Source: Candidatus Omnitrophota bacterium | Lineage (GTDB): Bacteria > Omnitrophota > Gorgyraeia > Gygaellales > JAQTUX01 | Length of the DNA stretch: 64,000 nucleotides | Direction: 5' to 3' | Assembly: GCA_028707125.1 (NCBI GenBank) | Contig: JAQTUX010000001.1 | Coordinates: 13,639 to 77,638, forward strand | Shown: in pieces, positions 20,197 through 41,123 of the stretch | How positions within the stretch are numbered: position 1 is the stretch's first letter | How the letters are laid out: each line of letters begins with the position of its first letter | Notes under the pieces: model-generated | Told to the model about the DNA's origin: nothing | What the model saw: the letters and a program-made list of their open reading frames with translations, nothing else | The model's database searches: none | Translations under genes and position numbers: made by a program

Positions 20197-20232
20197 ATTT
20201 ATTATACGAGTTTAAGAGGCAGGATGATCAAC

Positions 20233-20889: not shown

Positions 20890-20895
20890 CCTCTC

Positions 20896-22923: not shown

Positions 22924-22931
22924 AACACTCC

Positions 22932-24541: not shown

Positions 24542-24805
24542 TTAGCCCTTTTTTTCCTTCTTCTCCTTTATGTTGATAAAGGTCTGGCATTTATTATGGC
24601 CGCCTTTCTTGTATTTAAAATAAACCTCGCCGCTTGTCAAGGCATAAAGCGTATTCCTGCCGCTGACATTGATCCCGGCCTTCCATTTGTTCCCTTCGCG
24701 GGTGAGGATCGTCCCTGTTTTGACGAGCTGCCCGCTTGTGACCTTGAGCCCCTTTATATCCGTGTAATGCTGTGAATGTTTGGTCTTTCCGACTCCTATT
24801 GACAT
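24542..24805 (-). CDS. Ribosomal protein L27-like protein (divergent, stand-alone)
   Basis: 87 aa. KGLKVTSGQLVKTGTILTREGNKWKAGINVSGRNTLYALTSGEVYFKY aligns with the L27 core ([51 protein letters not shown]), but the N-terminus is atypical and there is no rplU neighbour. Confidence 0.5.
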   Translation of the reverse strand: MSIGVGKTKHSQHYTDIKGLKVTSGQLVKTGTILTREGNKWKAGINVSGRNTLYALTSGEVYFKYKKGGHNKCQTFINIKEKKEKKG

Positions 24806-25541: not shown

Positions 25542-27002
25542 CTAAATATGCACCTCTCCTTTTGTCGCCCCTGCCTCCCATTTACCGACCCCCGCCATAA
25601 CGTCCTGGAAACACAACTTGGCGAGTATATCAAAATTGCTCTCCATGATACGGTTAATGCGCCCGGGTTTGGAGAAGAACTCGCGCATGCACCAAGAACC
25701 CAAACGGCCCAACTCTTCAATAGAAAGGTGGTCTGTGGGAATGACCGGATGAAGGAAATCCCAGGTGCTGAAGTCCACCTTCCTGGGGTCTATCCAGTTT
25801 TTCTTTAACGCTATCTTCCACATCGGAGAATTCGGAGCGGGGGTGACATATCCGACCCATAAGACATCCGGGTCAACTTCGTCGGTAAATTCATACCTTT
25901 GCTTGATTATCGCCTCCGTGTCATAGTCAAACCCCATCATGATATCGGCGACGATCGCGATATCGTTCTTGCGCAGTATCTCAATGGTCTTTTTGATCTG
26001 ATCTATCGTCGTGCCTTTAGCGATCCTCTTGAGCTCTTCCTGCGTGGTAACCTCTATCCCGAATACGCCCATAAACAGGCCCGTCTCTTTCATCAAAGGA
26101 AGGATAGATTCGCAATTCACCCAATCAACAGCCCTGCCTAAAGAGACCCATTTAATCGGTATGTTCTTTTTCTTCTTTAATTCACAGAACCTTTTTACGC
26201 GCGCGGGGTCAACATTAAAATTATCGTCCTGTATGACCACGACTTTAACGCCGTATTCTTTGTGCAAAACCTCCAGCTCTTCAATGACCCTCTCCGGGCT
26301 CTTGGCGCGCCATTTCAGGAAATCAGACGGCGAGCGCGGGTCGAACTGGTCCCATTCATAGCAGAAAGTACAGGCAGAAGGGCATCCCCGCGAAGTGATC
26401 ATATCGACAAACGGCTTCCAGTGGGTGTGGCCCACGTATTTATCCATGGGGAACAGATCGTATGCCGGAAGCGGCAGCTTATCCAGGTCAGCCATCAGCG
26501 CCTTATGCGGGCCCATTACGATCTTGCCGTTAATACGCGAGGTGACCCCGCCCACGCCTGACGGATCTTTTTTCTTATCTATAGCTTCGAGCAGATCCGC
26601 GAACGACTCCTCTTCACCCATAACCACAAAATCCACGGCGGAATTCTCCTCAAGCGTGGGAACAGGCATAGCCGAATACCATAATCCACCCAATATTATC
26701 TTTACATCGGGGAGCGCGGCCTTTATTCTTTGGGCTGCTTCTTTGAAGTGGCGTAAAACGCCGTAGCCGCCATAGCCATGTATCTGTTCGCCCATGACCA
26801 CAACATCGGGTTTCTTGGCCTTCACCTGTTCGATCAACTGGTCCATGGGTATTTCCAGGGCCCTGCCGTCAATAACCGCGACATCGCTGTATCCGCGCTC
26901 ACGCGCGAAACTGGCCCAATGCGCGTAGAGTTGATTCGGCGACCTGTGGATCCCGTGCGTTGCCCATGCCCCGACCTTCGGCATAACGAATAATATTTTC
27001 AT
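25542..27002 (-). CDS. B12-binding domain radical SAM protein (class B radical SAM, putative methyltransferase/tailoring enzyme)
   Basis: 486 aa with an N-terminal cobalamin-binding Rossmann domain (MKILFVMPKVGAW...VVVMGEQ) and a radical SAM CxxxCxxC motif (SRGCPSACTFC). Confidence 0.85.
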   Translation of the reverse strand: MKILFVMPKVGAWATHGIHRSPNQLYAHWASFARERGYSDVAVIDGRALEIPMDQLIEQVKAKKPDVVVMGEQIHGYGGYGVLRHFKEAAQRIKAALPDVKIILGGLWYSAMPVPTLEENSAVDFVVMGEEESFADLLEAIDKKKDPSGVGGVTSRINGKIVMGPHKALMADLDKLPLPAYDLFPMDKYVGHTHWKPFVDMITSRGCPSACTFCYEWDQFDPRSPSDFLKWRAKSPERVIEELEVLHKEYGVKVVVIQDDNFNVDPARVKRFCELKKKKNIPIKWVSLGRAVDWVNCESILPLMKETGLFMGVFGIEVTTQEELKRIAKGTTIDQIKKTIEILRKNDIAIVADIMMGFDYDTEAIIKQRYEFTDEVDPDVLWVGYVTPAPNSPMWKIALKKNWIDPRKVDFSTWDFLHPVIPTDHLSIEELGRLGSWCMREFFSKPGRINRIMESNFDILAKLCFQDVMAGVGKWEAGATKGEVHI

Positions 27003-27019: not shown

Positions 27020-27940
27020 CTATTTAAGGTTCAATATATCCGAAAAATTTTTGGACAAAACCTTCTCTTTTTCTTCTTCTTGTAATCCTGAATTTCGAAC
27101 AACATCAATAGAGCCCTGCAGGGCCCTGTTCGCCGGCCAGTCAGAGCCGAAAAGCATACGAGCGCTGCCTGACATTTCTAAGGCGCATTGTAAAACAGAG
27201 GCCGACTTGCAGCCGGATGTATCAATATAAATCCTGCTCAATATCTCAGAAGGCATCCCGCCTAAATCCTTAACGAGATTAATCCCGCGCAGCATATTGT
27301 AGGTCGTATCAAACCTCTCCTTGATAAACGGCAGCACCCCGCCAAAATGGGCAAATACGAATTTCAAGTCGGGGAATTTTGTAAATACCCCGGACATCAT
27401 AAGTTTACCCGCGCACATTGTCAGGTCAAAAACATATTCAATAACAGGGCCAAGCAGCGGGTCGTTAACGCGCTCTGAGCCGATGGGCTCTATGATCTGT
27501 GAATGCACAAAGATGGGTATCCTGTTCTTCCGGCAAAACTCATACACGCCAAAGAATATCTCCTCATCCAGATAAGCGCCGTTATAACTGGAGGCAAGAG
27601 ACAGGGCCTTCAGGCCCAGTTCCTTATACGCGCGCCTGCATTCCTTAAGCATCAACTCCGGCTCGCCGAAAGGCAGGATAAATGAGCCGATAAACCTGTC
27701 CGGATATTTCTTTACTATATCCGATACGCCGTTATTAAAAATAGCGGCTATACCCTGCCAGCCGCCTTCCGTATGCAGGTGCGCGTCCGTGGTAGGATAG
27801 GTAAGCAACGCCTTTTCTATGCCGGCTGCGCCCATCGCCTTGATCTGCGTCCCGATGTCTGACCAGGCAGGATGAAAGAACGAGGCGTTCTCTACTATCT
27901 CTTTCGGCAGCCAGTGCGAGTGGCCATCGTTTATGCTCAT
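27020..27940 (-). CDS. Amidohydrolase-2 family (TIM-barrel metal-dependent hydrolase/decarboxylase-like)
   Basis: 306 aa. The N-terminal HSHW metal-binding motif, internal VHSQ and C-terminal FGSDWP are typical of Amidohydro_2 (ACMSD-like decarboxylases/lactonases). Confidence 0.7.
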   Translation of the reverse strand: MSINDGHSHWLPKEIVENASFFHPAWSDIGTQIKAMGAAGIEKALLTYPTTDAHLHTEGGWQGIAAIFNNGVSDIVKKYPDRFIGSFILPFGEPELMLKECRRAYKELGLKALSLASSYNGAYLDEEIFFGVYEFCRKNRIPIFVHSQIIEPIGSERVNDPLLGPVIEYVFDLTMCAGKLMMSGVFTKFPDLKFVFAHFGGVLPFIKERFDTTYNMLRGINLVKDLGGMPSEILSRIYIDTSGCKSASVLQCALEMSGSARMLFGSDWPANRALQGSIDVVRNSGLQEEEKEKVLSKNFSDILNLK

Positions 27941-28719
27941 TTATCGGGATGCTCCTGCTTAAACGGTATCACCGGAGCGGTCCAGGGCGTCTGCTGGTTT
28001 ATCACCGCGATCTCCAGCGGACAGACGTTTGCCGGCACAGTCAGCGCAAACCTCACCGCGTTTTCTATGGCTTCGGTAGTCATAAGCCGCGAGGTATTGG
28101 CGGTCACCTCTTTCAGTTTACCGGTAAGGTCTGTGTCGGTCACGCCCGGCAGTATTGAGGTTATCTTGATGCCGTGGTCGCGCAGCTCCCAGAATAACCC
28201 CTTGGAGAACGCGCGCAGGCCTACCTTAAGCGAACTATAAACCAGAAAGTTCCTCGGCAAAGGGTCGCAGAGCGTTGAGCCGGATACCATGTTAATGATG
28301 GCGCCGGATTTATTTTTAATCATATCGTTGATAACTAAACGGATCATCCGTACATAACCTAAATAATTCGTGTGCACCAGGCGCTCAAAGTCCTCAAAGG
28401 GCTGTTTTTCAAAGGGGTATTGGCTGGAAACCCCGGCGTTGTTTATCAGGATATCTATCTTGCCGAATTTCTCTTTTGTCTTGTTCACCAGATTTTCCAG
28501 GTCCTCTAATTTAGTCACATCGCAAGGCACGGCCAGGACCTCTACCTTGTATTTCTTCGCCAGTTCCGCGGCGGTTTCCTTAAGCGGCCCCTCTCCGCGG
28601 GCGGCGAGGGCTAAATTAACGCCTAAACTTGCCGCGGTTGAGGCCAGTGCCTTACCTATGCCGCGGCTTGAGCCGGTAACTATGGCTGTCTTTCCTTTCA
28701 ACTCTGCGCTCATATTCAT
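27937..28719 (-). CDS. SDR-family oxidoreductase (3-ketoacyl-ACP/polyketide ketoreductase-like)
   Basis: It carries TGSSRGIG (TGxxxGIG), NNAG and the catalytic YxxxK (YSSLK). It overlaps its neighbours by 4 nt on both sides. Confidence 0.85.
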   Translation of the reverse strand: MNMSAELKGKTAIVTGSSRGIGKALASTAASLGVNLALAARGEGPLKETAAELAKKYKVEVLAVPCDVTKLEDLENLVNKTKEKFGKIDILINNAGVSSQYPFEKQPFEDFERLVHTNYLGYVRMIRLVINDMIKNKSGAIINMVSGSTLCDPLPRNFLVYSSLKVGLRAFSKGLFWELRDHGIKITSILPGVTDTDLTGKLKEVTANTSRLMTTEAIENAVRFALTVPANVCPLEIAVINQQTPWTAPVIPFKQEHPDK

Positions 28720-29162
28720 CTCCTGACTTTGGCTTCCTTTTCTATGACATCTTTAAATATCAGCAGGTTATCTTTGGAATGCTTATTAATAAAGCCCTCC
28801 ACCTGCTCATCGTTGAACTTCGCCTTATCGTCCATCTCAAAATGCTGTATCCAGGTCAGCAGGGTGCCTGCCTGCTTCGGCGTATAAAGCCAGACGATCT
28901 TCATATATTTAAAAGGGAATTTCGGCTCTTCTCTCTCGGAATAGGTAAAGTATTCATCTTTGAACAACAGCCGCCAGGACTGCCAGGACTTGCCTTCGTC
29001 ATCGGTAAGCCGGAAGGTGATCTTATTGCCTTCTCTTTTGAGCACCTCTGCCTTCTTGTATTCTCCTCCAAACAGCTCTGTCCAGCGTTCAATGTCGTTG
29101 GAGATCTCGAATATCCTGTCATAAGGCGCGTTGATCACGATCGAATTGCATGTATGCCCCAT
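28716..29162 (-). CDS. SRPBCC (Polyketide_cyc2/START-like) domain protein, putative polyketide cyclase/aromatase-like
   Basis: 148 aa with helix-grip-fold-like pattern (IVINAPYDRIFEISNDIERWTELF...), similar in size and organization to TcmN-type ARO/CYC domains. Confidence 0.55.
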   Translation of the reverse strand: MGHTCNSIVINAPYDRIFEISNDIERWTELFGGEYKKAEVLKREGNKITFRLTDDEGKSWQSWRLLFKDEYFTYSEREEPKFPFKYMKIVWLYTPKQAGTLLTWIQHFEMDDKAKFNDEQVEGFINKHSKDNLLIFKDVIEKEAKVRR

Positions 29163-29179: not shown

Positions 29180-29977
29180 TTATAATATCGCTACGACGCG
29201 CGCCCAGGCAGCGCCGGCGTCTTTGATCTTAACCGGAAAACACGCCACCTTAAAACCCGACGCCGGCAATTCATCCAAATTGGCCAGCCGCTCAATGTGC
29301 GCGTATTCCCGTTTTCTGCCGAAAAAGTGCGCCGGCCATAAATGCCTCGCGTCATGGGTGCGCGTAAAATCAGCCATCATGAATTTATACGGCCGGTCAA
29401 AGCCCAAAGTGTCGATGCCCACTATCTTCACTCCCGCGTCCAATAAATACCCTATGGCCGCGGGATCTACTCCGGGATAATTCGTCAAATATTCTTTTGA
29501 GCCGAAAAATTTATCCGCCCCCGTATGCAGCAATACGATATCGCCGGACTTAAGTTGATAATTTATCTTTTCCAGGGCAAAACGCGCGTCGTTCTTGGAT
29601 ATGACCTCTCCCGGTTTCTTGTCGGTGAAATCCAGGACCACCCCGTCGGAAAGGCACCATTCCAAAGGAAGCTCATTTATTGTCTTTGACGGCCTTCCCT
29701 GCGACTGGCTGCCGTAATGGAACGAGTAATCAATGTGCGTGCCGATATGCACCGGAGAATGCACTGTCTCAAGCGAGAGGAATTCTCCATCAGGCAGGTC
29801 TGATGGCTTTATGACCCTTTTGCCGAAAAGAAAATCCAGACGGCCCTTAAGCGTCCTTTTCATCATTACCCAGTTAAGATGGCGCACCCCGGGCTTATGC
29901 CCCAGCCGCTCGATCCAGAAAGGATGGACCTCGGGAGCGCTGTCGTCAATGGATATGCTTAAATCTATTATGTTCAT
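29180..29977 (-). CDS. Cyclase-family protein (pfam04199; kynurenine formamidase/polyketide cyclase-like)
   Basis: It has the HxGTHxDxxxH metal-binding motif (VHSPVHIGTHIDYSFHY) typical of the putative-cyclase family. Confidence 0.75.
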   Translation of the reverse strand: MNIIDLSISIDDSAPEVHPFWIERLGHKPGVRHLNWVMMKRTLKGRLDFLFGKRVIKPSDLPDGEFLSLETVHSPVHIGTHIDYSFHYGSQSQGRPSKTINELPLEWCLSDGVVLDFTDKKPGEVISKNDARFALEKINYQLKSGDIVLLHTGADKFFGSKEYLTNYPGVDPAAIGYLLDAGVKIVGIDTLGFDRPYKFMMADFTRTHDARHLWPAHFFGRKREYAHIERLANLDELPASGFKVACFPVKIKDAGAAWARVVAIL

Positions 29978-29980: not shown

Positions 29981-30214
29981 CTATGCCTTTTTTGAGCCAA
30001 TTATGGCGGCGATGTCCTTGATGGACTGGAATTTGCTGATCTCCTTCTCATCCAATTTTACACCAAACTCCTTCTCTAAAGCAATACGTATCTCCACCAT
30101 TTCGGTTGAGTCAACTCCGATGCCTTCGTAAAGTTTCGCGCCTGTGTCAATATTGGCGTTCCTGAGCCCCAGCAATTTTACTATCATGTCTTTTACTTGC
30201 GTCTCAATCTCCAT
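29981..30214 (-). CDS. Acyl carrier protein
   Basis: 77 aa. GVDSTEMVEIRIALEKEFGV has the phosphopantetheine-attachment Ser in a DSx motif at the start of helix II. Confidence 0.8.
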   Translation of the reverse strand: MEIETQVKDMIVKLLGLRNANIDTGAKLYEGIGVDSTEMVEIRIALEKEFGVKLDEKEISKFQSIKDIAAIIGSKKA

Positions 30215-30224: not shown

Positions 30225-31460
30225 CTATGCCTTCTTTAATATCAATGCCGAGTTGATGCCGCCCCTGCCGCGGGAAATAACCAGGGCGTTATTGATCTCC
30301 CGGGCAACGCCTTTATCTCTGATAAAATTCAGGTCCGCTCCCTTAACCGGCTCCTTCAGGTTTACCATCGGAGGAAGCATGCTGTTTTCCATGGCCAGTA
30401 TGGTGATTATAATGTCAACCGCGCCGGAGGCGCCCAGAAGATTACCCAGCATGGTCTTTGGCGCGCTTACCGGAATGGTTGCCGCTTTCTCGGCGAATAC
30501 ATCCTTTATGGCATTGATCTCGCTTGTGTCGCCGTCAACAGTAGCCGCTCCGTCAAGGCAAATGTAATCTATTTCCCGCGGCTTGATGCCGGCGCCTTGA
30601 AGCGCTATCTTTATGGCGCGCGCAAGCTGCCTGCCTGAGGCGTCCGCCTTTATCCTGTCTACCCCGTCGCAGGTCGCCCCGTATCCGGACACATACGCGC
30701 TGATATGCGCTCCTCTTTTTCTGGCGCGCTCTTCGCTTTCCATGATCATAATGCCGGCGCCCTCGCCTATGACAAAACCGTCCCGCTTTTCATCAAACGG
30801 CCTGTATGCCGCCTGCGGATCGGCGTTATTCGCGCTTAAGGCGCCGTAGCTGTTGCAGCATAACAGCGCGTAAGGCGTAACCGGCGCCTCCATTCCTCCG
30901 GCGAGGATAAAATCCAGCCGGTCTTTTTCCAGCGTCTTTTTGGCATAGCCGATGGCCATGAGGGAGGAGGCGCGGTCAGAGACGACCGTCTTGGAAAACC
31001 CCTTTATGCCGTAATAGATGGAAACCTGCCCCTGCGGCGCGGCAGGGAACCAGGCAGATGCCATATACGGGCTGACGCCTTCGCGGCCCTCCATATACAG
31101 ATCGCGCAGCTCTGTTTCGGCGTAAAGCCAGCCGCCGATGGCGTTGCCCATGAATATCCCTATATTATTGGGGTTTTCCTTTTGCACGTCTATCTTCGCG
31201 TCCTGAAGCGCCTGTTCTGAGGCGATCAGGGCAAGATGGGAAAAGGTGTCTATTTTTTTCAGCAGGCGTTCCGATAGATGAGAATAGGCATCCAGGTCTT
31301 CGATCTGCCCGGCGATACGCGAGGGATATTTTGAGGCGTCAAACCTGGTGATGGCGCGCACGAATGAACGGCCGTTCTTGATATTCGCCCAGAAAGGCCG
31401 CTTGCCCGTGCCTGCGGGCGCGACAATACCTATGCCTGTAACCACTATCCTCTTCATCAT
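30225..31460 (-). CDS. Ketosynthase beta / chain-length-factor-like subunit (KS fold lacking catalytic Cys and His residues)
   Basis: 411 aa with a thiolase/KAS fold. At the active-site position the sequence is VVSDRASSLMAIGYA instead of TGC(T/S)SGLDA. The HGT and GH motifs are replaced by DGAAT and GN. The start overlaps the upstream KS gene by 4 nt. Confidence 0.8.
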   Translation of the reverse strand: MMKRIVVTGIGIVAPAGTGKRPFWANIKNGRSFVRAITRFDASKYPSRIAGQIEDLDAYSHLSERLLKKIDTFSHLALIASEQALQDAKIDVQKENPNNIGIFMGNAIGGWLYAETELRDLYMEGREGVSPYMASAWFPAAPQGQVSIYYGIKGFSKTVVSDRASSLMAIGYAKKTLEKDRLDFILAGGMEAPVTPYALLCCNSYGALSANNADPQAAYRPFDEKRDGFVIGEGAGIMIMESEERARKRGAHISAYVSGYGATCDGVDRIKADASGRQLARAIKIALQGAGIKPREIDYICLDGAATVDGDTSEINAIKDVFAEKAATIPVSAPKTMLGNLLGASGAVDIIITILAMENSMLPPMVNLKEPVKGADLNFIRDKGVAREINNALVISRGRGGINSALILKKA

Positions 31461-32719
31461 TTACTCCATCTTTTTAACACAAGCGAAGAATGTATGCCGG
31501 AAAAGCCGCTTGCGGTTTTTAAAATAGTATCCACCCTTTTTTCCATCGCCTTATTGGGAATATAATTCAGGTCGCACTGCGGGTCCGGCTCCTCCTGATT
31601 TATCGTCGGAGGCAGGATATTCTTTTCAAATATCTGCGCGCATACCGTCAACTCCACGGCGTTGGCCGCCGCCAGAGGATGCCCGATCATCGATTTGAAC
31701 GAACTGATGGGAAGTTTATACGCGTAATCGCCGAATATCGTCTTGTAGGCTCCGGTCTCAAAGATATCGTTCATCCTTGTGGATGAGCCGTGGGCGTTTA
31801 TGTAGTCGATCTCCCGCGGCTTGACCTTCGCGTCCTTCAGCGCCATCTTTATGCAAGTAGACATCGCCTCCCCGTCTTGGGGCAGGTCGGTCATATGAAA
31901 GGCGTTGCAGCTTGAGCCGAATCCCGTGATCTCGCAGTATATATGTGCCCCGCGGTTTTTGGCGTGTTCCAGTTCTTCCAGTATCAAAACCCCGGCGCCC
32001 TCTGAAAGCACGAACCCGTCGCGCTTGTTATCAAACGGCCGCGACGCCTTTTCCGGCTGGTCATTGCGGTTGGACAATACGCTGACCACGTCAAAGGCCC
32101 CGAACGTAATAGGGGTAAGCGGCGCCTCTGCCGCGCCGGCGATCAAGACATCCGCTTCGCCGTCCCTTATCGCCTCAAAGGCAAAACCCACCGCGTCCGT
32201 GCCGGCGGTGCAGCCGGTAGAAAGGGTTTCACACAAGCCGTTCAGATGATAGCGCGCCGATATCTCGCTTGAAGGCGTATTGAACATCGCCGCGTCGTAG
32301 AGAACGTCGCTTGCCTTGGCAGGGTCGATCGGCTCTTTGCCGTGGTTTGTCACGCGCAGGAACTCCTCTTCCATATATTTGGTGCCGCAGATGGCGTTTG
32401 CCAGAACCACGCCTATCTGCTCAAGATTTTCTTTCTTAAAGTCCAGTTCTGAATCCTCAACCGCCATTTTGGCGCAGGTTACGCCGAACTGCACGTAGCG
32501 GTCCATCCTCGCCGCCTCCTGCCTGGTCAACCCCAGCTTTACGGGGTCAAATTCGTAGCAATATGCCGCGATCCGGGAATGGAACATTGAGACGTCAAAC
32601 ATGTCCACCTTTCTCACGGCGGACTTTCCCCGCGACATACCCTGCCAGACCCCGTCCTTGCCTATGCCGTTGGGTGATATGCAGCCGATGCCTGTAACAA
32701 CTACGCGCCTATTCTTCAT
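31457..32719 (-). CDS. Beta-ketoacyl synthase, type II PKS KS-alpha-like (active)
   Basis: 420 aa. The active-site LSTGCTAGTDAVGFA resembles the type II PKS KS-alpha TGCTSGLDA motif. His-His (NAHGSST ... KSMIGHPLAAA) is conserved. Confidence 0.85.
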   Translation of the reverse strand: MKNRRVVVTGIGCISPNGIGKDGVWQGMSRGKSAVRKVDMFDVSMFHSRIAAYCYEFDPVKLGLTRQEAARMDRYVQFGVTCAKMAVEDSELDFKKENLEQIGVVLANAICGTKYMEEEFLRVTNHGKEPIDPAKASDVLYDAAMFNTPSSEISARYHLNGLCETLSTGCTAGTDAVGFAFEAIRDGEADVLIAGAAEAPLTPITFGAFDVVSVLSNRNDQPEKASRPFDNKRDGFVLSEGAGVLILEELEHAKNRGAHIYCEITGFGSSCNAFHMTDLPQDGEAMSTCIKMALKDAKVKPREIDYINAHGSSTRMNDIFETGAYKTIFGDYAYKLPISSFKSMIGHPLAAANAVELTVCAQIFEKNILPPTINQEEPDPQCDLNYIPNKAMEKRVDTILKTASGFSGIHSSLVLKRWSK

Positions 32720-32725
32720 GTCTGC

Positions 32726-33310
32726 CTACTCCACTCTGGTTGCCCTGAACCTGACATTGCCTCCGTCAGGGCAGGTAATGGTGTTCAAAGAGTTCTCATC
32801 TTCCATAAAGGAAAATTTTGCCCCGAAATTAAGCGCGAACAAAACGGGAAACAGGGTATGGAACGCCGCCCCGCAGAAATTCGGAATGGTGCGCAGGCCC
32901 GTGGTCTCCCATTTATCTCCCGCCTTATAACCATAGAAGCATTTGCCGGTGACCTCCTCCACGCTGATTATCATTTTCCTGGGGCTGGGGCCTTTGTGAT
33001 CGGGATTCTTAGGCACAACCTCAACCTTGCCCGCGTCATCAAGGACCTCGGTAAAAAACTCCAGTTTCCCGCCGTCGGGGCAGGTCGTATGCATAGAACG
33101 TTGGTTCTGCTCAAAAGGGAATTTAGCGCCAAAAGTCAAGGCGTAGCAGGGCGCGAACACCGAATGCGCCATCCCCAGGCAAAAATGCTTGGGCGGATGC
33201 GTGAAATCATCAAGTATCAGCTGGTCGCCGACCTTATAATTATGGTAACAATACCCGCCTTGTTTGGTAACGGTCAATCTTAACTTGGGAAACTTTACCC
33301 TGCTTTCCAT
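32726..33310 (-). CDS. Tandem-duplicated Cys-rich protein of unknown function (2 x ~95-aa repeat ending in TCPDGG)
   Basis: 194 aa. Repeat 1 (GGYCYHNYKVGD...FCLGMAHSVFAPCYALTFGAKFPF...TCPDGGKLEF) and repeat 2 (GKCFYGYKAGD...FCGAAFHTLFPVLFALNFGAKFSF...TCPDGGNVRF) share conserved Cys/His positions. Confidence 0.4.
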   Translation of the reverse strand: MESRVKFPKLRLTVTKQGGYCYHNYKVGDQLILDDFTHPPKHFCLGMAHSVFAPCYALTFGAKFPFEQNQRSMHTTCPDGGKLEFFTEVLDDAGKVEVVPKNPDHKGPSPRKMIISVEEVTGKCFYGYKAGDKWETTGLRTIPNFCGAAFHTLFPVLFALNFGAKFSFMEDENSLNTITCPDGGNVRFRATRVE

Positions 33311-34296
33311 ATCTTCTCCTTGATCTGCTCTTTGGTGAGAAATCCGCCTGTCTTCTCTACCCTATGCACAAGTTCAACTAATTTTTTATTCAGCGGCGCG
33401 GGAACGCCGGTTTTCTCTGCTACGTCCGCTATCTGGCCGTTGATATAGTCAATTTCAGACGGCCTGCCCCGTTTAATGCTCTGCAATATTGAGCCATGGA
33501 GCGGCTCACTGCTCAATTTGGTCATAATGCCGGAAAATATCGCGGCTGCCTTATCAACAGGCATAAACGCGAGGCCGCGCGCCTTGTCAATATCAAAACC
33601 AGGCAGCGCGCCAGGTTTTATGCCTGCCCTGTCAACTGCCTCAAACGCTTCTTTCTGAAGCGCCAGCGCGAGCTTACACATCTCAATATCGGAAAACACC
33701 TCCTGCATACTCAGGCCGCAGAGCGCGGGAACGCAATTGTTGAGATTCACGAATAATTTTGTCCACTTCTGCGCCACAATATCGCTGCTCTGAACAATCT
33801 CAAAAGCAGAAGACAGCTCATCGGTTATTGTCTGTACTATTGTGCCGTTGGCGCCATAGGGTTTACCAACTATCCACTTGCCTTCAAAATTATGCACGAT
33901 CGCGCCGGCTTTAAGATATGTCGCTCCGAACATAACTATGCTTGATATGATGTTATCCCGGCCGATGAACCCCGAAATAATTTCGTCCGCCTTTACGCCG
34001 TTTTGCGTAGTCAGAACGGTTGTGTCTCTGAAATAATCTTTGTTCTGGCTATATGCCTCTTCTATATCCTGCGTCTTTGTGGCAAGGATGATCAGGTCCG
34101 CGCGGCTGCCAAGGCGTGTGCCTGCATCAAGATCGATCCGTAGGTCTCCGCGCGCGCCGCTTACCTTCAGGCCGCCATTCTTGATCGCCTCAACCTGGTC
34201 AGCCCGTCCGATCAAACAGACGTCTTTGCCCTTCTGCTTAAGATAGGCGGCAACCAGCCCGCCGATCGCTCCTGCCCCTATTACGGCTATTTTCAT
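33295..34296 (-). CDS. Ketopantoate reductase (ApbA/PanE)-family NAD(P)-dependent oxidoreductase
   Basis: N-terminal Rossmann motif MKIAVIGAGAIGGLVAAYL and a C-terminal ApbA_C-like helical domain. Confidence 0.75.
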   Translation of the reverse strand: MKIAVIGAGAIGGLVAAYLKQKGKDVCLIGRADQVEAIKNGGLKVSGARGDLRIDLDAGTRLGSRADLIILATKTQDIEEAYSQNKDYFRDTTVLTTQNGVKADEIISGFIGRDNIISSIVMFGATYLKAGAIVHNFEGKWIVGKPYGANGTIVQTITDELSSAFEIVQSSDIVAQKWTKLFVNLNNCVPALCGLSMQEVFSDIEMCKLALALQKEAFEAVDRAGIKPGALPGFDIDKARGLAFMPVDKAAAIFSGIMTKLSSEPLHGSILQSIKRGRPSEIDYINGQIADVAEKTGVPAPLNKKLVELVHRVEKTGGFLTKEQIKEKIWKAG

Positions 34297-34769
34297 CTCT
34301 TCTCGCTATACGCCTTAAGATTATCTAAAATGTTTTCCAGATTCCTGTCGTGTAATCCGCGAAAGACAAGTTTCCATAAGATCTTATTGGCCCATCCCCT
34401 GACCTTAAACAGCATCTCGTATTCCACCTTTACCTTATGGCAGCACATCTGCTTTAAAGAAACTGTTTCCATGCCCTCTAAAAATCCGTCTTTAAATTTG
34501 CGCGTTATGCTTTCGCCTTGCTTGATCTCAGAGACCGCTGCTTTCCACGACGGGCCGAACGGAAGCGCTACCTTCTGTATATACTCGCTGCCTTCTCGAA
34601 CAGGGCCGTCCGTGGTTTTGCTGAACCTCATCAAGGAATTCTCAGGCCACCATCCGGCCTCTCCCCACCTGACTATTTCAAGGAACAGCCCTTCAATCCC
34701 CGCCTCAATTATCCTGGCGTGATAATTGGAATAATATTTATTTGCCGAAACCATATTTAGCGTAATCAA
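34293..34769 (-). CDS. SRPBCC/Polyketide_cyc2-like domain protein
   Basis: 158 aa with a helix-grip-like pattern; weaker match than 28716..29162. Confidence 0.45.
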   Translation of the reverse strand: MITLNMVSANKYYSNYHARIIEAGIEGLFLEIVRWGEAGWWPENSLMRFSKTTDGPVREGSEYIQKVALPFGPSWKAAVSEIKQGESITRKFKDGFLEGMETVSLKQMCCHKVKVEYEMLFKVRGWANKILWKLVFRGLHDRNLENILDNLKAYSEKR

Positions 34770-35007
34770 TGCCTACCGCATCAAGTATCTTCTTCATCGG
34801 GGCGGCAAACGCCGCCGGCACGCCCATAAACATCGCCTTGACCACATCAACCTCCTCTATCAGCGCGCTGCCGCGCTCCGTAGCGTAAAGTTGCGCGCTT
34901 TCCCTGATGGATCCTTCGGCAATGCTCCTGTGGAACAGGGATATCTTATTGATGATCTGCCTGAATTTATCTTCTATGCCTTTTTCCCAAACCAGCTTAT
35001 CAGCCAT
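34738..35007 (-). CDS. Small PCP_red-like domain protein (hypothetical)
   Basis: 89 aa. LVWEKGIEDKFRQIINKISLFHRSIAEGSIRESAQLYATERGSALIEEVDVVKAM resembles the stand-alone C-terminal domain of protochlorophyllide reductase subunit B (PCP_red). Confidence 0.35.
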   Translation of the reverse strand: MADKLVWEKGIEDKFRQIINKISLFHRSIAEGSIRESAQLYATERGSALIEEVDVVKAMFMGVPAAFAAPMKKILDAVGIDYAKYGFGK

Positions 35008-35016: not shown

Positions 35017-36453
35017 TTAAACGCTGAACCAATTTGCCACCAAAGGCCTGCCTGACAGATCCGTATTAATATGCTTCAGGTTCGTATATTCCAACAGCCC
35101 CTCCCTGCCCAGCTCTTTTCCGAAGCCGCTCTGCTTGAACCCGCCGTAAGGCGCCTGAGGATAAAACATGCCGTATGTATTAATCCAGACCGTGCCGGCG
35201 TTGATCTGACCGGCTAATCTTTGCGCCTTTGTTAAATCCCTGGCCCATATGCTGGCAGCCAAACCAAAAGCAGAGTTGTTAGCCAGGCCCGCTGCTTCAT
35301 CAAGAGAAGAAAACGTGGATACGCCTGTAACCGGGCCGAACACCTCTTCCTGGAATATGTCCATTTCCGGCCTGACATCGGCAAACACCGTCGGCTCAAA
35401 GAAAAATCCCTGTTTCAGATCCGCGGGTATCTTGCCTCCGCAAACAAGATGGGCTCCCTGTTTTTCAGCCCGCTCAACGAAGGACATAACTTTTTTTCTC
35501 TGTTCCTTGCTTATCAACGGCCCCATCTGGGTTTCAGGATCAAGGCCGTCGCCTAATTTTAACGCCTTTGCCTTGCTCACAAAGGCATCTAAGAATTTAT
35601 CCGCGATCTTCTTATCAATTAAAAGCCGCGACATTGCCGTGCACATCTGCCCCTGATTTAAAAATATACCGCAAAGCAGGCCGCTGGAAACGGTTTCTAT
35701 ATCACAATCATCCAATACCACTGCCGCTGACTTTCCCCCTAACTCCATAACCAGTTTCTTGGTATTGGCTGAAGCCAATTTCATTATTTCTTTGCCAACC
35801 TCATTGCTGCCGGTAAAAGAGATCATGTCCACAGCTTTATGCGCGGCCAATGCCGCGCCGACAGTGCTGCCCGCGCCGGTAACGATGTTAAAGACGCCTT
35901 TAGGCAGGCCTGCCGCCTCTATAATACGGCCGAGTTCCAGCGCGCTTAAAGGCGTTAAGCTCGCCGGCTTAAGCACTATAGTATTGCCCGCGGCAAGGGC
36001 GAAGGCCGTCTTCCAGCAGGCGATCAACAACGGATAATTCCAGGGGACGATCAAACCAACTACGCCTATTGGCTGGCGCGTAAGCGCGCTTCTTGCCTCT
36101 GCCGGCAGTTTTATTTCTTCATCCTTAAGCCATTCCTGTGATAAATTGGCAGCGTCCTCAAACACCTGCGCTGCCGACGGGATGTCCATAAAGGTGGTTT
36201 CCTTTATCGGCTTGCCGGTATTCAATGACTCAATCTCAATTAACTTGGAGGCATTTTCTCTTATGCCTTCCGCGATCTTGAAAAGACAGGCGGCGCGCTC
36301 CTTTGGAGACATCTTCGGCCAGGGCCCGTTATCAAAGGCATTTCTTGCCGATGAAACAGCCCGCTCCAGGTCATCGAGCGCGGCTTCCGGCACCTGCGCG
36401 ATCACTTTTTCGTTACAAGGATTAATTATTTCTCTTTTTTTATTAACGTTCAT
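35017..36453 (-). CDS. NAD(P)-dependent aldehyde dehydrogenase
   Basis: 478 aa with ELGGKSAAVV (catalytic Glu region), a catalytic Cys in GQMCTA and GxGxxG/FTGS motifs. Confidence 0.9.
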   Translation of the reverse strand: MNVNKKREIINPCNEKVIAQVPEAALDDLERAVSSARNAFDNGPWPKMSPKERAACLFKIAEGIRENASKLIEIESLNTGKPIKETTFMDIPSAAQVFEDAANLSQEWLKDEEIKLPAEARSALTRQPIGVVGLIVPWNYPLLIACWKTAFALAAGNTIVLKPASLTPLSALELGRIIEAAGLPKGVFNIVTGAGSTVGAALAAHKAVDMISFTGSNEVGKEIMKLASANTKKLVMELGGKSAAVVLDDCDIETVSSGLLCGIFLNQGQMCTAMSRLLIDKKIADKFLDAFVSKAKALKLGDGLDPETQMGPLISKEQRKKVMSFVERAEKQGAHLVCGGKIPADLKQGFFFEPTVFADVRPEMDIFQEEVFGPVTGVSTFSSLDEAAGLANNSAFGLAASIWARDLTKAQRLAGQINAGTVWINTYGMFYPQAPYGGFKQSGFGKELGREGLLEYTNLKHINTDLSGRPLVANWFSV

Positions 36454-36487
36454 TAGCGGTAATTAGCTTTTTACAAATTAGCGGCAA

Positions 36488-37483
36488 TTAGCGTATTTTC
36501 ACCTGCTTAAATAATTCAAACAGCCGGCCAAACGGCACATACCAGCGGGAAAGTTTACCTAATTCGCCTTTCAACTTCATTTTACCCTGCATAGTAGCCA
36601 CAAACGGCTCGATCTTACCTAAAAATACCGACTGCCAGACATCTGCCGGAGCCGATATGATAAAAGGCGCCTCATCATCAAATTCCAGCTTTGCTATCCT
36701 TCCCTTCTCAAAATTGAATTTATATGCCTTATTATGCCCGTCCATCTTGATCGCCAGTTTCAAGGTCAGGTCCAATTCCCCGCCTTTCTTCGCGATAAAC
36801 TCGTCCTTATTCACCAGGTCCACGATCGCCTGGATATGCTCCGGGGAAAACATCAAATACGACTTATCAGAAGCCAGGTTTTCTTTAAGCGCCTTATCCA
36901 GATCATCCAGTATATCCTTCTTAAACAGCCGCGCCACAGAAGCGGTCTTTACCGCCTCTTCCAATTCCTCAATAAGATACAACGCGTCTATGAATTTGTC
37001 CGCCATAGAGACCACGCCGTGATTCCTGATAAACGCTATATTGCTGTTTTTCAGGGCCTCGATCACCAGTTCCGGTTTTGTGATGGAAGGGGTATCCTGC
37101 GACACAGCGCTAATGTTGCCCAGATAGAGCCTGGTCTCAAAGGTCAGGGTCTTCAGTTCCGGATACACGGCAAAGTAGGCGTTGGCGAGCGGCGGATGGC
37201 AATGGATCACCGCTTTGCAGGGAAAATTCTTATAAATGGACTGGTGCAAAGGAAACTCCGAAGACAGGTTTTTTGCTTCTTGGGGCCTGCTCAAATCCAC
37301 TTTAATGATATCTTCGGCGGTTAAATTGCCCAGGCATGTTCCGCTGGCAGTGATAAGTATATTGTTATCGTCTATGCGGCAGCTCAAATTACCGCCGCGC
37401 GCGGCCACAAGGCGCAAAGCGGATAATTTCTTTCCGATATTGATCATCTCATCCCTTAAGGCCTTGTCTTTGCCGAATATCAT
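36488..37483 (-). CDS. Class II aldolase/adducin-family protein fused to C-terminal SCP2-like domain
   Basis: The N-terminal ~215 aa (LVAARGGNLSCRIDDNNILITASGT...HCHPPLA) is a FucA/MtnB-like class II aldolase. The C-terminal ~110 aa is an SCP2 sterol-carrier-like fold. Confidence 0.75.
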   Translation of the reverse strand: MIFGKDKALRDEMINIGKKLSALRLVAARGGNLSCRIDDNNILITASGTCLGNLTAEDIIKVDLSRPQEAKNLSSEFPLHQSIYKNFPCKAVIHCHPPLANAYFAVYPELKTLTFETRLYLGNISAVSQDTPSITKPELVIEALKNSNIAFIRNHGVVSMADKFIDALYLIEELEEAVKTASVARLFKKDILDDLDKALKENLASDKSYLMFSPEHIQAIVDLVNKDEFIAKKGGELDLTLKLAIKMDGHNKAYKFNFEKGRIAKLEFDDEAPFIISAPADVWQSVFLGKIEPFVATMQGKMKLKGELGKLSRWYVPFGRLFELFKQVKIR

Positions 37484-38421
37484 CTGCCGATCTCCAGAAT
37501 AAAATGTTTACTGATGAATTTATCGGGCGTAATATCAAACGCCGGATAATATCCTTTTACGCCGTAAGGGGCGAGCCGCAACCCCTTATATTCCAGCATC
37601 TCTTTTTCAGGGCGGACCTCTATTTTGATGTCCTTGCCTGTTTTCGCCTTTGAGGCAGGCGGGCATAAAACATAAAAAGGTATCTTAAAATGCCTTGCCA
37701 ATACCGCGATCTGATAAGTGCCGATCTTGTTGGCGACGTCGCCGTTTCGCGCCAGCTGGTCGCATCCCACAATAACCTTATTCACCTTTCCCTGGGATAT
37801 GACGCTGGCTGTCATATTATCGGTTATCAGGGTTACGGGAACCTTTGCGCGCTGTAATTCCCAGGCGGTAAGGCGGCTGCCCTGAAAATAGGGACGGGTC
37901 TCTGTGGCGTAAAACCCTATTTTCTTGCCCTGCTTCCGGCAGAACTGCGCGATAAGCGGCAGTTCACCGCTGACATTGCAATGGGTAAGTATGCTGTCGC
38001 CGTCTTTTAGATGATCAGCCACTTCCTCTGCCCGCTTAATCCGCTTATGCCTCAACATCTCTAAAAATCCATGGATCATCTTTTCTAAATCTTTTCCTTG
38101 CGCCTGCCAGCCAAGGACCATATCAGTAAGGAATTTGAACGGCAATGTAGGACGAGTGGCATTAAGCGTATCAGCTACCTTCTTGAGAACTTTGCCTGTA
38201 TTTTTACCGCCCCTGTTCTGCCTCAAAACCAGCAGAAAAGTATAGAAAACCAGGATCACCTGGCCAAAGGCGCGCGTCTTCATTGCCTTGATCGCCCTTG
38301 CCGCCTGCTGGTATGTCCTTACCTTTATATATGTGAGTTTCTGCGGCAGCGCTGTCTCATCAAGCACATAGATCGTGTCACCCTTCAATTCTATCGGCCA
38401 AAATAATGGTGAAAATGTCAT
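37480..38421 (-). CDS. mtnA: eIF-2B alpha/beta/delta-family isomerase (methylthioribose-1-phosphate isomerase MtnA / ribose-1,5-bisphosphate isomerase-like)
   Basis: 313 aa. IELKGDTIYVLDETALPQKLTYIKVRTYQ...VGCDQLARNGDVANKIGTYQIAVLARHFKIPFYV matches the MtnA/e2b2 family. It overlaps the aldolase gene by 4 nt. Confidence 0.8.
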   Translation of the reverse strand: MTFSPLFWPIELKGDTIYVLDETALPQKLTYIKVRTYQQAARAIKAMKTRAFGQVILVFYTFLLVLRQNRGGKNTGKVLKKVADTLNATRPTLPFKFLTDMVLGWQAQGKDLEKMIHGFLEMLRHKRIKRAEEVADHLKDGDSILTHCNVSGELPLIAQFCRKQGKKIGFYATETRPYFQGSRLTAWELQRAKVPVTLITDNMTASVISQGKVNKVIVGCDQLARNGDVANKIGTYQIAVLARHFKIPFYVLCPPASKAKTGKDIKIEVRPEKEMLEYKGLRLAPYGVKGYYPAFDITPDKFISKHFILEIGR

Positions 38422-38442
38422 AATTAACTCCGAAGCAGTTTA

Positions 38443-38796
38443 TTATTTATGATTATTCAGCGACTTCCTTACCTTTAATACCAGAGGCCTGACTTCGGGC
38501 AACTCCTGCTTTATTAAATTCCAGACTATCTCGAGATCAACACCAGAATATTCATGGATAAGCTTATCGCGCATGCCCGCCATTGCCTTCCATGGTACAC
38601 CGGGATGTTTCTCTTTTATGGCCGCCGGAATATTTTTTGCCGCCTCGCCCATCACCTCAACGCTTCTTAAAACTGCGTTTTGAGTTTTCTTGTCCTTTTT
38701 GAACTGCGCTAAACTCATCTCACCCACAAAATCATAAATCTCGCTTATGCAATCAACAATGTCCTGCACATAATCACGATAATCCCTTTTTACCAT
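38443..38796 (-). CDS. hepT: HepT-like (DUF86) RNase toxin of HepT/MntA toxin-antitoxin pair
   Basis: 117 aa with an Rx4HxY motif (RDKLIHEY). Confidence 0.8.
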   Translation of the reverse strand: MVKRDYRDYVQDIVDCISEIYDFVGEMSLAQFKKDKKTQNAVLRSVEVMGEAAKNIPAAIKEKHPGVPWKAMAGMRDKLIHEYSGVDLEIVWNLIKQELPEVRPLVLKVRKSLNNHK

Positions 38797-39089
38797 AGCG
38801 GCACCGCCTCTTTCAGTATGCTCCTGCCCATAATCGGCTTCAGGGCCTTTTTGGATACCAGATCAATCTTCCTGACCTTCAGTAAATGTCTTAAATATTC
38901 CTCTAATTCCATAAACGCCAGAAATCCCACGGGGCCGGAGAATTCAACCAGCATGTCCAGATCGCTGGTTTTCTTGTTTTCTCCTCTGACATATGAGCCG
39001 AAGACGGCCAATTCCTTTACTTTAAATTTGCTGTATAAAACCGGCTTGTGCTTGGAAATGACATCCCCTATTTTCTGCAATTTTGTCAC
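38790..39089 (-). CDS. mntA: MntA-like nucleotidyltransferase antitoxin
   Basis: 99 aa with the minimal nucleotidyltransferase motif GSYVRGENKKTSDLDMLVEF (GSx9-13DxD). It overlaps hepT by 7 nt. Confidence 0.8.
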   Translation of the reverse strand: MTKLQKIGDVISKHKPVLYSKFKVKELAVFGSYVRGENKKTSDLDMLVEFSGPVGFLAFMELEEYLRHLLKVRKIDLVSKKALKPIMGRSILKEAVPLW

Positions 39090-39105
39090 GCCAAACCACC
39101 TCCTT

Positions 39106-39200
39106 TATTAGTGAAAAATGCCCCCTCGCCCACAATACAACTACCCACTTTCCTCTTCAGCTCCGAAACAGTTTCTTGTTCCGCCAAACTTTGTGGCGGG
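39106..39200. repeat. Solo copy of IS200-end/REP-like repeat containing GAAACAGTTTC palindrome and CCGCCA-N7-TGGCGG hairpin
   Basis: 39130-39175 (CAATACAACTACCCACTTTCCTCTTCAGCTCCGAAACAGTTTCTTGTT) is ~80% identical to 54370-54410, immediately downstream of the IS200-like tnpA. Confidence 0.5.
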
Positions 39201-39238
39201 TCACCCGCTACGATACCCTCACCCCTTGCCCTAAATGT

Positions 39239-40093
39239 TTACTTTTCTATAGTAGGTTGCTTAGAGGAACGGGCACTATTTTCCACTCTCTTCTGATTCT
39301 GCGCATCAAAAGGAGTTATTACTCTAAGCACATCTTGACTCCTTATCTTGAATAATTGTTTGGTTTCCGAATCTAAAAATATGGTTCCCGTCTTTAATGT
39401 TTGAAATCCTTTAAGTTTATTCAGATATCCGAATGGGGTTTTCTTTTCATTCGCTAAATTCAGTGGTATTGCGGTCAATACTTCTGAATCTTGATCCTTC
39501 AAAATATCCTCCGAACACATTCCCATTAATACCCACAGATCAGCAACGCATATTGGGAATACAATAAGAAAGACAACTAATGGAATTGTAATTAGAGCAT
39601 AAAAACTTCTATTCTTAATGTATTTTAATATAGGAGATGATGGCAGATGCGCTAATGTCCATATTATATTGGTAAGAAAAATAAGGAAAACTAACACAAT
39701 GGTCCAAACACTTAATGAGTCGACAAAAATTCCAGACAAAAGACGAATTATTAACATTGCTAAAAATACAACAATTAATACGTTAACTACCTGAGCTAAT
39801 ATGGTAATTGTCAATTTTTTAAATAAAGAGTATATCATTTTATCTAGAAATCTGATGAATTCGTGTAGACAAATATTAAGATTTATTAATATAAAAAAGA
39901 GGAGGAAGCTAACTATGCCATAAAAAACATTCATGGACAAAATCGGTTCCTTAAAAACATAACCATGATAAATACCATTTAAAATTTTAAGGGAAGCTAG
40001 ATATCCCGCATAATAAAAATAAAAGACCAAACCAATAAATATCTGAACAAAATGCTTCATTAAAATTTGTTTCCAATATGCTTTATCAAACAT
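39239..40093 (-). CDS. Hypothetical polytopic membrane protein in an AT-rich segment
   Basis: The start was re-assigned to the ATG preceded by GGAGGA at 40093, because the longer ORF-track start overlaps the MITE-like element. The protein has multiple hydrophobic helices and an Ile/Leu/Phe-rich, low-GC composition. Confidence 0.45.
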   Translation of the reverse strand: MFDKAYWKQILMKHFVQIFIGLVFYFYYAGYLASLKILNGIYHGYVFKEPILSMNVFYGIVSFLLFFILINLNICLHEFIRFLDKMIYSLFKKLTITILAQVVNVLIVVFLAMLIIRLLSGIFVDSLSVWTIVLVFLIFLTNIIWTLAHLPSSPILKYIKNRSFYALITIPLVVFLIVFPICVADLWVLMGMCSEDILKDQDSEVLTAIPLNLANEKKTPFGYLNKLKGFQTLKTGTIFLDSETKQLFKIRSQDVLRVITPFDAQNQKRVENSARSSKQPTIEK

Positions 40094-40125
40094 AATTCCT
40101 CCAGAAAATGGAGTACACTCGTAAA

Positions 40126-40354
40126 TGAACCCGCTGGCTTTCGAGCGAATTTGAGGTTTTAGGCAAAGCAGCTCGAGCAGCGAGGGAACTTTGTGGCCTA
40201 TAAGGCCCAAAGTGCGAGGACTGTCTGAGCAGTATTTGCGTATAGCGCAAATACTGCGAGTTCCGCAAGCACCGAGCTGCGAGAGACCTTTGCCGGCCCT
40301 CTTTGAATGCCATTAGGGGCAAAACCGATATGAGCGAGGAAGCCAGCGGGTTCA
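40126..40354. mobile_element. MITE-like non-coding element with 16-bp perfect terminal inverted repeats (ATGAACCCGCTGGCTT) and internal hairpins
   Basis: The left end is ATGAACCCGCTGGCTTtcgagcg and the right end, reverse-complemented, is ATGAACCCGCTGGCTTcctcgct. The interior has perfect hairpins GCAGTATTTGCG-TATA-CGCAAATACTGC and GGCCTATAAGGCC, with no credible ORF. Confidence 0.45.
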
Positions 40355-40363
40355 TAGATTAGG

Positions 40364-41113: not shown

Positions 41114-41123
41114 AATCGTCTCC

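Follow-up and report, generated by a model that had tools for sequence, protein, structure and literature searches.

A tandem TIGR04076-family protein as a probable accessory subunit of type II polyketide synthases in Omnitrophota

The window, by which is meant the whole stretch of 64,000 nucleotides analysed here, carries on its minus strand a polyketide operon in which a gene for a tandem TIGR04076-family protein (hereafter T4076x2) is inserted between an ApbA-like reductase gene and the gene for the ketosynthase KS-alpha. This is the position given by the first-pass annotation, and the 16-nt overlap with the ApbA gene that it had reported agrees with the coordinates as well. The features of the locus are the following.

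34738..35007, minus strand: orf89, a small protein without a family match, which immediately precedes ApbA in almost every related locus
34293..34769, minus strand: orf158, without a Pfam or NCBIfam match, recurring in a subset of the related clusters (tblastn, approximately 10 loci)
33295..34296, minus strand: ApbA/PanE-family NAD(P)H reductase (Pfam ApbA and ApbA_C; TIGR00745, 183.9 bits)
33316..33321, minus strand: Shine-Dalgarno sequence AAGGAG, read from the sequence, 5 nt 5' of the T4076x2 ATG and within the end of the ApbA gene
32726..33310, minus strand: T4076x2, a tandem TIGR04076 protein of 194 aa (ORF call, ATG start; stop codon included)
33014..33292, minus strand: N-terminal TIGR04076 repeat, approximately residues 7-99, with Cys21, Cys44 and Cys77
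32729..33013, minus strand: C-terminal TIGR04076 repeat, residues 100-194, with Cys124, Cys146 and Cys180
31457..32719, minus strand: KS-alpha, with an intact Cys-His-His triad
30225..31460, minus strand: KS-beta/chain-length-factor-like subunit, the triad changed to Arg/Asp/Asn
29981..30214, minus strand: acyl carrier protein of 77 aa with a DS(T) phosphopantetheine motif; its tblastn orthologs in loci L001 and L002 are annotated as PP-binding
29180..29977, minus strand: PF04199 (OxyN/DpsY-type) cyclase (Pfam)
28716..29162, minus strand: SRPBCC (TcmN-type) polyketide cyclase/aromatase (Pfam)
27937..28719, minus strand: SDR ketoreductase (Pfam)
27020..27940, minus strand: Amidohydro_2-family enzyme (Pfam)
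25542..27002, minus strand: B12-binding radical SAM enzyme

The order of the operon is orf89-(orf158)-ApbA-T4076x2-KSalpha-KSbeta-ACP-cyclase-SRPBCC-SDR-amidohydrolase-B12 radical SAM, followed by a GDSL hydrolase gene, with all genes on the minus strand. Upstream of it lie genes for an aldehyde dehydrogenase, a class II aldolase-SCP2 fusion, an MtnA-like isomerase, a HepT toxin, a PNP-family phosphorylase, an AMP-ligase, an RND efflux system, MarR and PadR regulators and AccA. For orf89, a resemblance to PCP_red was considered and dropped; the protein gives no Pfam match even at E ≤ 1.

The nearest relatives of solved structure of the KS-alpha are the anthraquinone KS AntD (6SMO_B, 4.7e-113) and the actinorhodin KS (1TQY_A), which come ahead of FabF, and since the KS-beta lacks the catalytic triad, the cluster in the window is a genuine type II PKS and belongs to the "ancestral" kind with the architecture KS-CLF-ACP-OxyN-TcmN, which has been reported in anaerobes (PMC7693217). 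With the AQ-256/Ant cluster of Photorhabdus, the dendrubin cluster den and the clostrubin cluster clr it has in common the KSalpha, KSbeta and ACP genes followed by the OxyN-type (PF04199) and TcmN-type (SRPBCC) cyclases, whereas the T4076, ApbA, orf89, B12 radical SAM and Amidohydro_2 genes are additions of the window-type clusters relative to these three. The gene list of the Dendrosporobacter den cluster, as described (PMC7693217), contains no T4076-like gene, so T4076 is not universal in the type II PKSs of anaerobes. As for Omnitrophota, the literature searched holds catalogues only of their type II PKSs: KS/CLF pairs in "Candidatus Omnitrophica" were catalogued without the clusters being dissected (PMC10132072), and antiSMASH-based surveys list "ladderane-like" BGCs in the phylum (PMC9902471).

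The T4076x2 gene is tightly packed into the operon, its 5' end overlapping the ApbA gene by 16 nt and its stop codon being separated from the start of KS-alpha by 6 nt, and it is the sole TIGR04076 gene within the 64-kb window. The two plus-strand ORFs at 32601..32930 and 32858..33283 are shadows of the T4076x2 ORF. In a BLASTP comparison, its two halves (residues 1-99 versus 100-194) are 38% identical over 78 residues, with E=3e-18 and one small gap, which is well above chance and makes the internal duplication genuine; together with the TIGR04076 match in two separate stretches, this bears out the two repeats of approximately 95 aa that had been noticed before. The motifs given for them at that time were essentially right, TCPDGG being present in both halves, apart from two one-residue slips in register: the first motif should read G-(Y/K)-C-(Y/F)-x-x-Y-K-x-G-D in place of G(G/K)xC, and the "AH" of the second is (A/F)H in repeat 2. 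The probability that the ORF is spurious or a decayed gene is negligible, as it has more than 850 homologs at E ≤ 1e-3 (with orthologs 63-91% identical), a confident AlphaFold2 (AF2) model, a strong Shine-Dalgarno sequence and kept synteny, and nothing was found in favour of decay.

The first-pass annotation had recognized no described domain in this protein. That has to be revised, as T4076x2 matches the NCBIfam model TIGR04076 with 82.6 bits (against a cutoff of 33; E=2.2e-23), in two stretches that cover both halves, and its orthologs bear the IMG label "uncharacterized repeat protein (TIGR04076 family)". The domain and its tendency to repeat are therefore already catalogued and do not constitute a new domain. 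TIGR04076 has neither a Pfam model nor a solved structure; a Pfam scan of T4076x2 and 64 family members returned noise only, and sequence searches of the PDB with T4076x2 and with the family profile gave nothing below E=0.3. The literature searched holds no functional work on TIGR04076 beyond guesses at its role, one paper having an entry for it among tabulated genes, with "redox or iron cluster" as the supposed role, and another guessing in its discussion that it is "putative fimbriae-associated". An HMM search of 1.84 billion representative proteins placed 373 clusters in the family at E ≤ 1e-3; among the best 150 of these, most have a single domain of approximately 90 aa, around 30 have two copies and 16 have three or four. 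The named members come from anaerobes (Omnitrophota, Anaerolineae, Bilophila, Methanobrevibacter and Thorarchaeota). The bulk of the family belongs to a generic clade, 25-35% identical to the PKS-associated one, whose members are orphan genes with unrelated neighbours, which suggests that the PKS role is a specialisation of a more general function of the family.

The signature of the family reads v....G.C..g.k.GD....p...C..a.....P....l..G..fpw....CPD, and its three cysteine columns are occupied by Cys in 155, 154 and 154 of the 155 domains aligned. The other family-invariant columns in these domains are glycines and one proline, and a conserved acid/base set is absent. Cys21, Cys44 and Cys77 of the first repeat of T4076x2 and Cys124, Cys146 and Cys180 of the second align with the invariant columns, with the spacing C-x22/23-C-x33/34-C, while His23, His38 (in DFTHPP) and His49 of repeat 1 and His151 of repeat 2 are kept among the orthologs and not family-wide. 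T4076x2 thus has in common with the family the unit of approximately 90 aa, the three Cys, the G-x-C...K-x-G-D...C-x-x-A...P...G-x-x-F-P...C-P-D signature and the arrangement in one to four tandem copies. It differs from the common orphan clade in belonging to a PKS-associated clade with the motif FCGAA(Y/F)H..FP..ALNFG, at 25-35% identity between the two.

The AF2 model of the two-domain protein, made with 64 orthologs, has a pLDDT of 89 and a pTM of 0.83, and that of the C-terminal repeat alone, made with 84 diverse family members, has a pLDDT of 91. In these models, the repeat is predicted to fold as beta-beta-alpha-beta-beta with a very hydrophobic helix of 15 residues, and the three Cys are placed in the beta1-beta2 loop, at the helix N-cap and directly after beta3; from these loop and helix-end positions we infer that they would lie close together in space. 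The comparison of an AlphaFold model with known folds, suggested earlier as a check, was run with Foldseek against the PDB, and neither the two-domain nor the single-domain model found a match with E<0.3. The top match of both models, weak and to be read as a lead only (E 0.8-1.2), is to molybdenum-cofactor insertion chaperones of the XdhC/CoxI family, 3on5_B (probability 0.54, TM 0.55 on a 95-aa query) and 2we7_A; none of 64 TIGR04076 family members has an XdhC_CoxI Pfam match. A hot-dog-like fold, considered for the long hydrophobic helix wrapped by a sheet, and an IscU-like scaffold, considered for the three distant Cys, were set aside, the former being backed by no fold match and the latter by no HMM or fold match.

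The three invariant Cys of each domain probably hold a metal ion or an Fe-S cluster, a putative site suggested by their distance in sequence, the anaerobic origin of the named members and the fusions to redox domains described below. Furthermore, the single-domain TIGR04076 proteins would act as homodimers, which the tandem protein, as a pseudo-dimer, probably mimics.

Orthologs of T4076x2 are present in 231 genomes of a scan that used one genome per GTDB species, the best 80 of which are nearly all Omnitrophota MAGs, some carrying placeholder "Planctomycetales" labels. In tblastn searches with the window proteins, ApbA immediately precedes T4076x2 in 75 of the 75 genome loci with enough flank, KS-alpha immediately follows it in 77 of 78, and a B12 radical SAM gene is found within 10 kb in all 44 Omnitrophota loci with enough flank. 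More than 60 further metagenome loci all show the order ApbA-T4076x2-KSa-KSb-ACP-cyclase-SRPBCC, some of them with a KS-alpha that is only 57-60% identical. Across the genome loci, the identity is 63-72% for T4076x2, 68-76% for KS-alpha, 43-55% for ApbA and 41-58% for the ACP, so that the conservation of T4076x2 is comparable to that of KS-alpha and far above that of ApbA or ACP. Taken at the level of sequence and synteny, this indicates that T4076x2 is an obligately co-inherited subunit of an Omnitrophota-wide, non-actinobacterial type II PKS operon.

Of the two repeats of T4076x2, the C-terminal one is the closer, at 40-55% identity, to a clade of single-domain TIGR04076 proteins that has the motif FCGAA(Y/F)H..FP..ALNFG in common with it, and all members of this clade that were looked up sit in type II PKS clusters, the architectures of which differ from that of the window:

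L084: KS-KS-T4076-ACP-cyclase-SRPBCCx2-MFS-PPTase
L154: cyclase-PALP-cupin-SRPBCC-KS-KS-T4076-ACP-three B12 radical SAM
L155: KS-KS-...-B12 radical SAM-Rce1-T4076-cyclase-SRPBCC
L156: ApbA-T4076(N-type)-T4076(C-type), each T4076 unit having a gene of its own, followed by KS-KS-ACP-cyclase-SRPBCC

In L155, the T4076 gene adjoins the cyclase gene and is approximately 5 kb away from KS/CLF, so its adjacency to the minimal PKS is not absolute. These clusters of other lineages, together with the neighbours kept in the genome and metagenome loci, uphold the first-pass proposal of a dedicated cluster component. The co-occurrence with KS/CLF pairs in other genomes, which that annotation had suggested searching for, was found, and the result named there as counter-evidence, namely a well-characterized unrelated family whose homologs have no association with KS genes, did not emerge.

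Gene fusions add a further kind of evidence. Two representative proteins of the PKS clade, P0154 and P0160, are fusions of T4076 to an ACP. P0154, from a Bacillota MAG, provides the ACP in the cassette KS-KS-[T4076::ACP]-cyclase-SRPBCC-PPTase (locus L157), which has neither an ApbA nor a radical SAM gene within 8 kb on either side. Full-length fusions of ApbA to the tandem T4076 protein have two representatives, P0423 (536 aa) and P0424 (543 aa), from two diverged lineages of Omnitrophota; the latter is found on 5 contigs, and in 3 samples it has the same operon position, orf90-[fusion]-KSa-KSb, so that an assembly artefact can be discounted. Fusion partners of T4076 beyond the PKS clade are of other kinds: it is joined to Flavin_Reduct in a protein with 28 members in its 90% cluster, to DUF362 and a 4Fe-4S ferredoxin domain (T4076x3-DUF362-Fer4), to Cupin_2 and to a DUF5679 zinc ribbon. 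DUF362 is also a neighbour of T4076 in locus L086 and is present within the cluster in L157. Rubredoxins fused to a flavin reductase constitute the so-called high-molecular-weight rubredoxins, and in the Flavin_Reduct fusion T4076 takes the place of their Cys-ligated iron domain; it differs from the rubredoxin in having three rather than four putative ligating Cys and no CxxC knuckles.

Taken together, the sequence data indicate that a subclade of TIGR04076 serves type II PKSs as a dedicated component, in Omnitrophota and Bacillota at least, and, from the Rosetta-stone fusions (T4076::ACP and ApbA::T4076x2) and the invariant adjacency, that T4076 of this clade is coupled in function to both the ACP and the ApbA reductase. 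It is thus very probable that T4076x2 is a TIGR04076-family accessory dedicated to the type II PKS, with the ACP and ApbA as its partners. The fuller explanation that we prefer, in which it would be a Cys3 accessory subunit of an anaerobe-type type II PKS, probably with a metal or Fe-S centre, and would be in physical partnership with the ACP and ApbA, appears to us evenly balanced between right and wrong, and the specific adaptor mechanism set out here is tentative. In this mechanism, T4076x2 would assist the minimal PKS as a small auxiliary or adaptor subunit. Its C-terminal repeat, being orthologous to the single-domain and ACP-fused forms, would engage the ACP and its diverged N-terminal repeat the ApbA-type NAD(P)H reductase. 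In this way, starter or poly-beta-keto intermediates tethered to the ACP would be brought to the reductase or, in lineages without ApbA, to KS/CLF or the cyclases instead. The Cys3 centre would either have a structural task or host a redox or Lewis-acid step that is independent of O2. Against the preferred explanation stand the Flavin_Reduct and DUF362-ferredoxin fusions, which point to electron transfer and not docking, the orphan genes in unrelated contexts that make up most of the family, the distance of approximately 5 kb between T4076 and KS/CLF in L155 and the description of the den cluster without T4076.

An alternative that takes up the fusions to redox domains, and which we consider unlikely, holds that T4076x2 is a small Fe-S or iron redox protein, ferredoxin- or rubredoxin-like, which feeds the B12 radical SAM enzyme or an O2-independent redox tailoring step, with ApbA as part of an NAD(P)H-linked reductase system. 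Such a role would agree with the three invariant Cys per domain, the anaerobic origin of the named members, the Flavin_Reduct::T4076 fusion with its 28-member 90% cluster and its architecture as in high-molecular-weight rubredoxins, the T4076x3-DUF362-Fer4 fusion and the presence of DUF362 near T4076 in L086 and L157, and also with the B12 radical SAM gene within 10 kb in 44 of 44 Omnitrophota loci and in L154 and L155. However, no radical SAM gene lies within 8 kb on either side in L157, and none is present in the stretches of L084 and L156 analysed; a ferredoxin-like donor dedicated to the radical SAM enzyme is down-weighted because it is the T4076::ACP cluster, L157, that has no such gene nearby. 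Neither does the fusion of an electron carrier to an ACP have an obvious logic, and T4076x2 and the family members have no CxxC or CxxCxxC motifs and no Fer4 or rubredoxin HMM matches. Moreover, ApbA/PanE enzymes are flavin-free hydride-transfer enzymes, so the reductase cannot alone feed one-electron centres. A catalytic role on ACP-bound intermediates, be it malonyl-ACP decarboxylation and priming, cyclisation, dehydration or release, by way of a Cys3 Lewis-acid metal with an open coordination site or of a catalytic Cys, would agree with the fusion to the ACP, with the position between KSbeta and ACP in L084 and L154 and next to the cyclase in L155, and with a conservation on par with that of KS. 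The Gln that performs decarboxylative priming in actinomycete CLFs is replaced by Arg, Met or Ile in every KSbeta compared, a set that comprises T4076-containing clusters only, and these KSbeta would accordingly need another priming route. Such catalysis nonetheless appears quite improbable, given that the family-invariant residues are three Cys, glycines and a proline with no conserved acid/base set, that the clusters are already equipped with two cyclase types, a KR, hydrolases and an AMP-ligase, and that the family lies mostly outside PKS clusters. T4076x2 has, in addition, no Pfam or Foldseek match to cyclases or aromatases (SRPBCC, PF04199, cupin, SnoaL/ABM) and no HMM or fold match to hot-dog or thioesterase families.

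It is also conceivable that the protein performs no chemistry and no ACP docking and serves purely as a structural chaperone or solubility factor for KSalpha/KSbeta or ApbA, similar to MbtH or, with zinc stabilisation, to DUF35. MbtH-like and DUF35 proteins are small partners encoded within the cluster, in some cases as a fusion with the enzyme or carrier that they assist, and the DUF35 zinc-ribbon/OB scaffolds of thiolase-HMG-CoA synthase complexes have a Cys-ligated zinc and bind thiolase-fold enzymes; the likeness of T4076x2 to the MbtH-like proteins of NRPS clusters and to DUF35 proteins is an analogy in function, with no relationship in sequence or fold. T4076x2 resembles these partners in being small, cluster-encoded and now and then fused to partner enzymes, it is translationally coupled to ApbA and KSalpha, and its top, non-significant Foldseek matches are to cofactor-insertion chaperones of the XdhC/CoxI family. 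This purely structural role is, however, hard to credit, as the ACP fusions speak for a connection with the carrier protein and not with the KS only, an identity of 63-72% across the phylum is high for a mere solubility factor, and the generic TIGR04076 members stand alone. Of the roles put forward in the first-pass annotation, i.e. cyclase, chaperone or metal-binding factor, a metal-binding or chaperone-like partner fits best with the three invariant Cys and the fusions to ACP and ApbA, and a cyclase has found no specific support.

With the family itself already catalogued, what is new here is a type II PKS with an additional, conserved and uncharacterised subunit. The association of a TIGR04076 clade with type II PKSs across phyla, the fusions to ACP and ApbA and the absence of a structural relative were not found in the literature searched. 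The textbook "minimal PKS" of type II systems consists of KSalpha, CLF and ACP. To this is added a Cys3 domain family that is conserved like a ketosynthase, has a fixed position across Omnitrophota, recurs in Bacillota and other MAGs and is sometimes fused to an ACP or a reductase. It may be speculated, although we would sooner expect this broad proposal to fail than to hold, that the minimal type II PKS of anaerobic, non-actinobacterial lineages has one more component than has been recognised, namely PKS-clade TIGR04076, which would be a Cys3 metal or Fe-S domain of new fold, work on or with the ACP and supply a function that actinomycetes obtain differently. If that were true, candidate functions would be chain priming, the partner CLFs having no decarboxylating Gln, or an O2-independent redox step on the nascent aromatic polyketide coupled to the flavin-free NAD(P)H reductase. 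The association gives a testable functional handle on TIGR04076 as an orphan family, it hints at an accessory function, so far unexplored, in the making of aromatic polyketides by anaerobes, and it may matter for the heterologous expression of "ancestral" PKSs. It also flags a phylum-wide and probably important metabolite of the uncultured Omnitrophota.

The gene lying directly 5' of the ApbA reductase gene in nearly all of the related loci encodes an 89-residue protein (orf89), for which searches of Pfam and NCBIfam returned no match even at E<=1. Because orf89 adjoins ApbA in almost all of these loci, it is an obligate member of the module formed with ApbA and the tandem TIGR04076 protein (T4076x2), and the second member of it to be uncharacterised. 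In the window an additional gene, orf158, is positioned between orf89 and ApbA and overlaps both of its neighbours; it likewise has no family match in Pfam or NCBIfam. Homologs of orf158 occupy the same position in about 10 metagenome loci and are missing from most of the Omnitrophota genome loci.

34738..35007 (-), orf89, 89-aa protein
34293..34769 (-), orf158

In every TIGR04076-containing cluster examined, the catalytic Cys position of the CLF-like subunit is taken by Arg, Met or Ile, as judged from the window protein (30225..31460, minus strand), the related locus L002 and five PKS clusters of other architectures (L084, L154, L155, L156 and L157). In actinomycete CLFs, a Gln at this position carries out decarboxylative priming, whereas none of the CLFs examined here has Gln at that site. 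The two catalytic His residues are mostly gone from these subunits as well, with the second His being kept in L154 and L157.

TIGR04076 is found repeatedly together with DUF362, another uncharacterised family that is often fused to ferredoxin, as a fusion, as neighbours and within the PKS cluster carrying a TIGR04076::ACP fusion (representative protein P0206, a TIGR04076-DUF362 fusion; locus L086, 6542..7426; and the Bacillota MAG cluster L157, 10561..11643).

A cluster of the Omnitrophota type is also borne by a 12.8-kb contig (L050, JAIWAR010000044.1) from a MAG labelled as a Methanosarcinales archaeon, in the order AMP-ligase, PNP, orf89, ApbA, T4076x2, KS-alpha, KS-beta, ACP, cyclase and SRPBCC, at 54-66% identity. 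This is probably a case of misbinning, and it is relevant to the archaeal type II PKSs hinted at in PMC10132072.

The block upstream of the PKS looks like a 5'-deoxyadenosine/MTA "DHAP shunt" combined with acid activation. Such a gene set recurs next to the PKS, on either side, in many loci, and in L158-L160 its place is taken by a DeoC aldolase and a Zn-ADH; it may serve in the salvage of radical SAM by-products or in starter unit synthesis. The block also holds a HepT-type toxin gene, around which the GC content falls to 0.40, and a small upstream gap could accommodate its MntA antitoxin.

35017..42560 (-), aldehyde dehydrogenase, class II aldolase-SCP2 fusion, MtnA-like (IF-2B) isomerase, PNP-family phosphorylase and AMP-ligase
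38443..38796 (-), HepT-type toxin, flanked by the genes for the isomerase and the phosphorylase

At lower window coordinates than the PKS operon lie a short ORF that may encode an L27-like paralog, a GH57 block that looks like glycogen or alpha-glucan metabolism, and an arsenic-resistance-like block.

24542..24805 (-), 87-aa ORF just downstream of the operon, which matches Ribosomal_L27 at a below-par level (E=3e-9)
18610..24158 (-), three GH57-family genes (branching enzyme, 4-alpha-glucanotransferase type and a third GH57) and a DUF4912 protein
14209..18588 (-), SBF/ACR3-type transporter, DsbD-like membrane protein, ArsM-like SAM methyltransferase and ArsP_1 permease
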